Below are positions 27,954 through 28,215 of a stretch of DNA of 64,000 nt, in pieces (the stretch's first letter is position 1; every line of letters begins with the position of its first letter). Below the pieces are notes generated by a model that saw only the letters and a program-made list of their open reading frames with translations, ran no database searches and was not told where the DNA came from. The stretch lies in NCBI RefSeq assembly GCF_053078305.1, contig NZ_CP166879.1; one strand, 5' to 3'. A program made the translations under genes and the position numbers.

Positions 27954-28160
27954 ACTTATATATCACAGGTATTGTGTCTCGTCCGGAACAAGACAGGTAG
28001 GTATGCTGCATTCACTGAACCATTACAGAGAATATTTCAACAGAGTTCAATATACCTCCATGTATAACAACTACACCTTGGGGGCTATATTGGGGGCTAT
28101 TTATAGGGAGGTGTTTAAATATATACTTATTATTCAATAATATAGGTTGATTAAGTTCAT

Positions 28161-28215
28161 CCCCGGCGGGGAGCGCTTTTTCATAGATGCCAAGCGGGAT
28201 TTGTTTGGACAACAT
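28161..28215 (-). pseudogene. ulaE: Truncated ulaE (first about 18 codons only)
   Basis: MLSKQIPLGIYEKALPAG matches the UlaE N-terminus immediately downstream of ulaD; the frame then runs into AT-rich island DNA and stops after 67 codons. No ulaF follows. Confidence 0.7.

Follow-up and report, generated by a model that had tools for sequence, protein, structure and literature searches.

The ula operon is a published integration site for large genomic islands in Escherichia coli. One survey (Biggel 2020, PMC7686366) names six integration sites of papGII PAIs, namely four tRNA genes and the sites labelled 'ula: ulaE-ulaD' and 'gln: glnP-glnH', and attributes site-specific integrases to the minor sites. 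GI-S21EC-ulaE, described by Alvarez-Fraga 2022 (PMC8764528), is an island at the same locus. A third system of relevance, LAA (Montero 2017, PMC5539235), integrates at pheV and comprises modules I-IV, including hes. Here we analyze a 64-kb stretch of DNA (hereafter the window) in which an island meets the ula operon. The published ula-site islands share the insertion point of the window island, with ulaD on one side and the body of ulaE on the other. The integrase-ulaE' junction is present in S21EC, and the integrase of this strain (WP_001131670.1) is the same as that of strain FHI_NMBU_10, whose island is a relative of the one in the window. Their cargo is different: what can be seen of the window island encodes two-partner secretion and Ag43, not pap or afa. 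By its site the window island is not LAA, as it lies in ulaE and not in pheV; its visible likeness to LAA is limited to the tps module and module IV. Since integration at ula has been described before (Biggel 2020; Alvarez-Fraga 2022), the window junction is a further case of a known island type at a published non-tRNA site, and in that sense an ordinary boundary. The available texts of PMC7686366 and PMC8764528 do not mention the core sequence, arm repeats, kinship with gln-site islands or inverted copy reported below; these details leave the category unchanged.

Alignment to K-12 MG1655 gives a single block that runs from window position 35061 down to 28160 with 97.4% identity, spanning yjfN to ulaD, and pins the breakpoint at ulaE nucleotide 56. 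The final 203 bases before the breakpoint are 100% identical to K-12 MG1655. The ulaE ATG lies at 28215-28213 on the minus strand; the first 18 codons are the same as in K-12, and codon 19 reads GAT in place of GAG. The G+C content is 35% in 27954-28159 versus 57% in ulaD. The original prediction had placed an island boundary inside ulaE, after about 18 codons matching K-12 and with a divergence into AT-rich DNA at about 28160, and it is borne out on each of these points. It was also right that this is not a tRNA integration site: there is no tRNA or tmRNA gene near the junction, the only tRNAs in the window being three tRNA-Gly genes at 58405-58703, and an Rfam search of 27500-28700 returned no meaningful match. 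An array of the same three tandem tRNA-Gly(GCC) genes occupies the corresponding chromosomal region of strain DETEC-P1056, so the array seems to be a normal part of the core genome with no relation to the island.

On the chromosomal side of the junction, ulaA, ulaB, ulaC, ulaD, ulaG and ulaR are all full length, free of stops and 98-100% identical to the K-12 proteins. Across the junction runs a 67-aa ORF that RefSeq labels 'hypothetical protein'; it is a fusion by-product of the split ulaE and thus an annotation artefact. Neither the K-12 alignment nor the protein alignment finds the rest of ulaE or any ulaF within the 64-kb window. A contiguous ulaE-ulaF, which had been considered as an alternative outcome, is therefore not what the window holds, as the alignment stops at ulaE nucleotide 56. 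The window shows one island end only, its left edge still lying inside the island among two-partner secretion genes; ulaE' and ulaF are therefore out of view, not shown to be absent. The features of the locus are summarized in Table 1.

Table 1. Features of the ulaE island junction and neighbouring ula genes in the 64-kb window
Feature	Position	Strand	Evidence
Right-hand part of the island, at least 28 kb, running off the left window edge	1..28159		K-12 homology ends at 28160
AlpA-like excisionase/regulator candidate, 68 aa	11677..11880	+	PHROG 'excisionase and transcriptional regulator', E 7e-10
DUF4942 gene (yeeW-like), last island gene	27105..27953	+	DUF4942 annotation in all relatives
Distal attachment arm, 35% GC	27954..28159		At least 95% identity in 64 E. 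coli genomes; 80-90% in 26 more
Chimeric ORF, 67 aa (18 UlaE + 49 arm-encoded codons)	28012..28215	-	Sole family match is the UlaE N-terminus
Two direct TAGCCCCCA copies, period 12, putative arm-type integrase sites	28078..28100	-	Conserved, both arms
Palindrome ATTATTCAATAAT, 13 nt, in the island arm	28129..28141		Seen in sequence
att core TCCCCGGCGGGGAG, 14 bp, ulaE codons 15-19 on the minus strand	28160..28173		Identical copy at the other island end
5' ulaE fragment, 56 nt (18 codons + 2 nt)	28160..28215	-	100% identity to K-12 ulaE nt 1-56
ulaD, intact	28225..28875	-	216/216 aa aligned, 99.5% to K-12, no stops
ulaC, intact	28889..29353	-	Protein alignment to K-12
ulaB, intact	29363..29668	-	Protein alignment to K-12
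ulaA, intact	29684..31081	-	Protein alignment to K-12
ulaG, intact	31436..32500	+	Protein alignment to K-12
ulaR, intact	32608..33363	+	Protein alignment to K-12

The junction is very probably the integrase-distal end of a large genomic island that was inserted site-specifically into the 5' end of ulaE by a P4/IntS-type tyrosine integrase. In the model we propose, this integrase would insert the island at a 15-bp palindrome in ulaE, and recombination within the palindrome would leave a 14-bp direct repeat at each island end. Integration would split ulaE: 56 nt would stay with ulaABCD and be read into the arm as the 67-aa chimeric ORF, and the other 799 nt of ulaE would be moved, along with ulaF, tens of kilobases away to the integrase end, where they would have neither their native promoter nor a proper start codon. 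The TAGCCCCCA repeats, which lie in tandem within the island close to its end, would serve as sites for the N-terminal arm-binding domain of the integrase. For the window genome itself, the integrase end, the second core and ulaE'/ulaF are inferred from its relatives; judging from these, ulaF and the rest of ulaE have most likely not been lost but moved to the opposite end of the island.

We surveyed 5426 complete E. coli genomes with a 1.1-kb probe spanning the window junction, accepting matches with at least 80% coverage. The window-type junction is present in 63 of these genomes (~1%), whose sources include humans, pigs, cattle, chickens and water; the closest match among complete genomes is 99.1%, and none is identical to the window. 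With its uninterrupted ulaE, K-12 represents the empty site, the junction being present in only these 63. A probe for the integrase-ulaE' junction also finds 63 genomes, an equal count, and all 30 of the listed window-type junction genomes appear in the integrase-junction list as well. Island lengths, taken from paired junction coordinates, range from ~40 to ~131 kb. In JNEC-KY203 (NZ_AP045179.1), the two island junctions lie ~112 kb apart on opposite strands, pointing to a rearrangement, one breakpoint of which would lie within the island.

The identical integrase WP_001131670.1 is found beside different UlaF alleles in NCTC9082, S21EC (ST131), ST69 and FHI_NMBU_10, which points to horizontal spread. 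In the particular lineage of the window, the occupied ulaE locus may have arrived by homologous recombination of its flanks from an island-carrying donor, with no fresh integration, a route by which E. coli islands reportedly spread. The arms are indeed 99-99.5% identical across hosts whose ula flanks differ by 2-3%. However, the same junction is expected from such a transfer as from a fresh integration, and the nature of the junction would be unchanged. We regard arrival by this route as possible, though on the unlikely side.

The far island end was inspected in eight genomes (EC6, FHI_NMBU_10, NCTC9082, S21EC, ST69, O111:H8 7-58 72A, CFSAN061770 and DETEC-P1056), and in all eight it holds the 799-nt 3' part of ulaE and the full ulaF. 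In EC6, which has a complete 40-kb island, the far end consists of a tyrosine integrase, a 175-bp arm, ulaE', an intact ulaF, yjfY and rpsF. The same layout is seen in FHI_NMBU_10 (83.6 kb), NCTC9082 (70 kb), S21EC, ST69 and O111:H8; the ulaE island of CFSAN061770 measures 75 kb. Both ulaE' and ulaF are intact in 6 of the 7 carriers checked, the exception being NCTC9082, whose ulaE' has an internal stop. In this strain internal stops are flagged in ulaD, ulaG, ulaE', yjfM, yjfJ and yjfI, which is unusual for so short a region and may reflect decay, a mutator history or sequence quality. FHI_NMBU_10 has a YagU-family gene between yjfY and ulaF (local coordinates 1248-1799) that is not there in K-12.

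These far ends correct the original prediction in part. It had ulaF as missing, yet the gene is complete at the other island end in eight of eight island-bearing genomes, and here it would lie beyond the window. It had ulaE as truncated: a 56-nt fragment is indeed what the window contains, but the gene is split and not deleted, the other 799 nt being displaced in the relatives. Of the insertion, deletion or recombination that it held to have removed the end of the operon, the insertion stands and the removal is not supported. A deletion or illegitimate recombination that joined the end of a tRNA island to ulaE, taking away the 3' part of ulaE, ulaF and downstream DNA, would account for a window that holds nothing of ulaE past nucleotide 56 and no ulaF, and the island backbone is of a type usual at tRNA genes. 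All relatives examined, however, have ulaE'-ulaF-yjfY-rpsF beside the island integrase, together with the 14-bp target repeat, and a large deletion beyond ulaF would be costly because rpsF, priB, rpsR and rplI are located there. We consider such a deletion very improbable.

The attachment core TCCCCGGCGGGGAG has an identical 14-bp copy at the other island end in EC6, FHI_NMBU_10, NCTC9082 and others, and it is found at the CFSAN061770 ends too. It is single in K-12, and the window holds one copy, at 28160. The target is a perfect 15-bp palindrome, CTCCCCG-C-CGGGGAG, formed by ulaE codons 15-19, of which TCCCCGGCGGGGAG forms part; the crossover falls somewhere within the 14 bp of the core, that is, within 28160-28173. 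Read in the direction of the ula operon, the K-12 site is GCG CTCCCCGCCGGGGAG TGC, the window junction is GCG CTCCCCGCCGGGGA / TGAACTTAATC, and the integrase-side junction of the relatives is TAATAAATC / CTCCCCGCCGGGGAG TGC, with slashes marking the junctions.

The arm that adjoins the core is distinctive, about 140 bp of it (28019-28159) being specific to ulaE-type islands. A search of plasmid and phage collections with the att arm, for a free attP or a phage origin, gave no match. The two short repeats originally noticed in this arm are real (TTGGGGGCTAT at 28078-28088 and 28090-28100), and their likely function is now that of arm-type integrase sites. The 9-mer TAGCCCCCA has its two copies 60 and 72 bp from the core, against 0.28 expected by chance in 64 kb, and occurs nowhere else in the window. 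The relatives have a second TAGCCCCCA pair in the integrase-side arm, oriented like the first; its copies lie 138 and 150 bp from the core, directly upstream of the integrase start codon. A 48-bp module common to both arms scores 32, compared with 17.2 ± 2.4 in shuffles, and the paired repeats are kept in both arms of three lineages: the main ulaE lineage, the CFSAN061770 ulaE lineage and the gln-site islands. Because the integrase has an arm-binding domain, the TAGCCCCCA repeats are most likely arm-type integrase binding sites. The 13-nt palindrome noted in the same arm also exists, but it is not kept in CFSAN061770 or in the gln arms; a functional role for ATTATTCAATAAT was dropped because the sister lineages do not conserve it.

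When 100,044 species-representative genomes were scanned for TAGCCCCCA-N3-TAGCCCCCA, 24 matches turned up, in unrelated taxa. Only one of the 24 lies near a related integrase, and the pair is therefore no general signature of the integrase family. That match is in a Flavipsychrobacter sp. MAG (local 9866-10150), where an exact TAGCCCCCA pair precedes, by ~260 bp, a DUF4102-type integrase with 31% identity to that of the ulaE islands, and two one-mismatch TAGCCCCCA copies adjoin the integrase start codon. The link between repeat and integrase in this MAG is weak.

The integrase of the ulaE islands, known from the relatives, is a 393-aa protein with the domains Arm-DNA-bind_3 (PF13356), Phage_int_M (PF22022) and Phage_integrase (PF00589). 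It is 41-42% identical to IntS-type phage integrases and matches NCBIfam PRK09692 below the family cut-off. In EC6, FHI_NMBU_10, NCTC9082, S21EC, ST69 and O111:H8 its gene lies 175 bp from the core, a position outside the window here. An insertion by transposition, in which the 14-bp repeat would be a target-site duplication, could draw on the many IS elements inside the islands. Yet the island ends have neither a transposase nor terminal inverted repeats; the site is base-precise and common to two integrase lineages that are 88-90% identical, with an analogous palindrome at gln; and the gene 175 bp from the core encodes a tyrosine integrase that has an arm-binding domain. We consider transposition very improbable. 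As for an assembly artefact or chimera, which had been raised as a possible refutation and has only the abrupt change in composition to recommend it, the recurrence of an identical junction in 63 independently assembled complete genomes from varied sources, out of 5426, excludes it for practical purposes.

Some of the 26 genomes that match the arm at 80-90% identity carry sister islands between glnH and glnP; E. coli ECCNB12-2 is one example (local coordinates 2480-2830 and 25093-27250). The gln integrase has 397 aa and 81-84% amino acid identity to the ulaE integrases, with 85 of 90 residues identical in the arm-binding domain. It is set apart from all three ulaE integrases by 42 substitutions, all in residues 90-321, and the target-tracking substitutions thus all fall outside the arm-binding domain. 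The duplicated core at gln, TCCCCTCTGGGGAG, has the same form as that at ulaE, TCCCC-N3-GGGGAG, and differs from it solely in the central trinucleotide, which is TCT at gln versus GGC at ulaE. The gln arms are homologous to the CFSAN061770 ulaE arms (95% and 89% identical) and have the same TAGCCCCCA pairs. CFSAN061770 represents a second ulaE lineage, with an integrase of 88-90% amino acid identity, a different cargo and arms 72-76% identical to the main ones. Its arms and integrase-proximal cargo (EcsC, yebF, dolP, sit) are far closer to the gln-site island than to the main ulaE lineage; the island has the appearance of a gln-type element that switched its target to ulaE, or of a switch in the opposite direction.

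In DETEC-P1056 (NZ_CP116169.1) the entire 68-kb ulaE island is inverted (local coordinates 3990-4290 and 12625-14070): ulaE'-ulaF borders on the distal arm and ulaD-'ulaE on the integrase arm, and the base at the centre of each core goes with the chromosome. The inverted layout is apparently also present in at least two other genomes. Since the core is nearly palindromic, either orientation of the island is plausible; either reverse integration or in-situ inversion may have given rise to the DETEC-P1056 arrangement.

Removal of the island in silico between the two cores yields a UlaE of 284 aa that is 98.6-98.9% identical to that of K-12. EC6, FHI_NMBU_10 and CFSAN061770 all give this 284-aa protein, as does joining the left end of either relative to the window junction. 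The base-precise integration into a palindrome, the intact ulaE'/ulaF in 6 of 7 carriers and the AlpA-like candidate together give rise to a bolder reading, in which the island is a reversible switch whose regulated excision restores ulaE and anaerobic ascorbate catabolism, and the ulaE and gln integrases are a pair retargeted by the central trinucleotide. We hold this to be improbable. The AlpA-like candidate itself matches the TIGR01764 excisionase domain below cut-off and is 96% identical to a gene of the FHI_NMBU_10 island.

When the island is integrated, the ulaA promoter controls ulaABCD followed by the 67-aa fusion ORF. At the far end, RefSeq annotates ulaE' as a 271-aa UlaE that starts with ATC directly after a TAA stop (local coordinates 6406-7221, minus strand, in one relative). 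This ATC is an annotation artefact and no real start; the first ordinary in-frame start in ulaE' is Met-38 of K-12 UlaE, a protein whose structures have been solved (3CQH-3CQK). Because the N-terminal segment is lost and the promoter is separated, UlaE function should be abolished while the island is in place. Promoter and terminator scans at both junctions gave only consensus-level matches near shuffle expectation, which provides no basis for claiming island-driven expression of ulaE'-ulaF. The paralogues sgbU and sgbE could compensate; unless they do, ascorbate fermentation is probably impaired in carriers.

The cargo visible in the window comprises two-partner secretion genes, Ag43 and a CP4-44-like module (YeeU/CbtA, DUF4942). 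Window segments 1-8318 and 15157-28159 are collinear, with 96-98% identity, with the 83.6-kb ulaE island of FHI_NMBU_10, which is the closest relative. Segment 8318-15157 is not collinear with it; a stretch of 34-36% GC lies at ~13000-15000, and the ORFs at 10503-11294, 11969-12541 and 14122-15141 have no family match. The first 6000 bases of the window (1-6000), with genes for two-partner secretion and a toxin-activating acyltransferase, are 99.3-99.5% identical to regions of LEE-negative STEC strains (O91, O178:H19, O43) and resemble the tpsA/tpsB module of LAA, here on an island at the ulaE site rather than at pheV.

The split of ulaE has practical consequences. For annotation, what reads as 'truncated ulaE / missing ulaF' results from the splitting of a gene and not from a deletion. 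In carriers, which make up ~1% of complete E. coli genomes, ulaABCD, ulaG and ulaR are intact, ulaE is split and ulaF is off the operon promoter. For the biology of mobile elements, the ulaE and gln sites share one type of palindromic core, TCCCC-N3-GGGGAG, and the same arm repeats, and either orientation of the island is possible at ulaE.

Genes that are split by an inserted element and restored on its excision are known from the Listeria comK phage, Bacillus skin/sigK and SPbeta/spsM. Like the ulaE island, these elements use a short core within coding sequence, and precise excision would restore an intact ORF; unlike in those systems, regulated excision or a physiological switch forms no part of the evidence for the ulaE island. 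The gln-site islands (Biggel 2020) share with the ulaE islands a distal CP4-44-like module, but their target is an intergenic hairpin, whereas that of the ulaE islands is coding sequence. The P4-like islands integrated at tRNA genes (pheV, pheU, leuX, selC; LAA, PMC5539235) share integrase architecture, a mosaic cargo and the distal module with the ulaE island; this module comprises YfjI, a GTPase, Ag43, antirestriction, RadC, YeeU/CbtA and DUF4942. They target the 3' end of a tRNA gene, whereas the ulaE island targets the 5' coding region of a metabolic gene, and it does not rebuild the gene that it disrupts, as a stop codon lies directly upstream of ulaE'.
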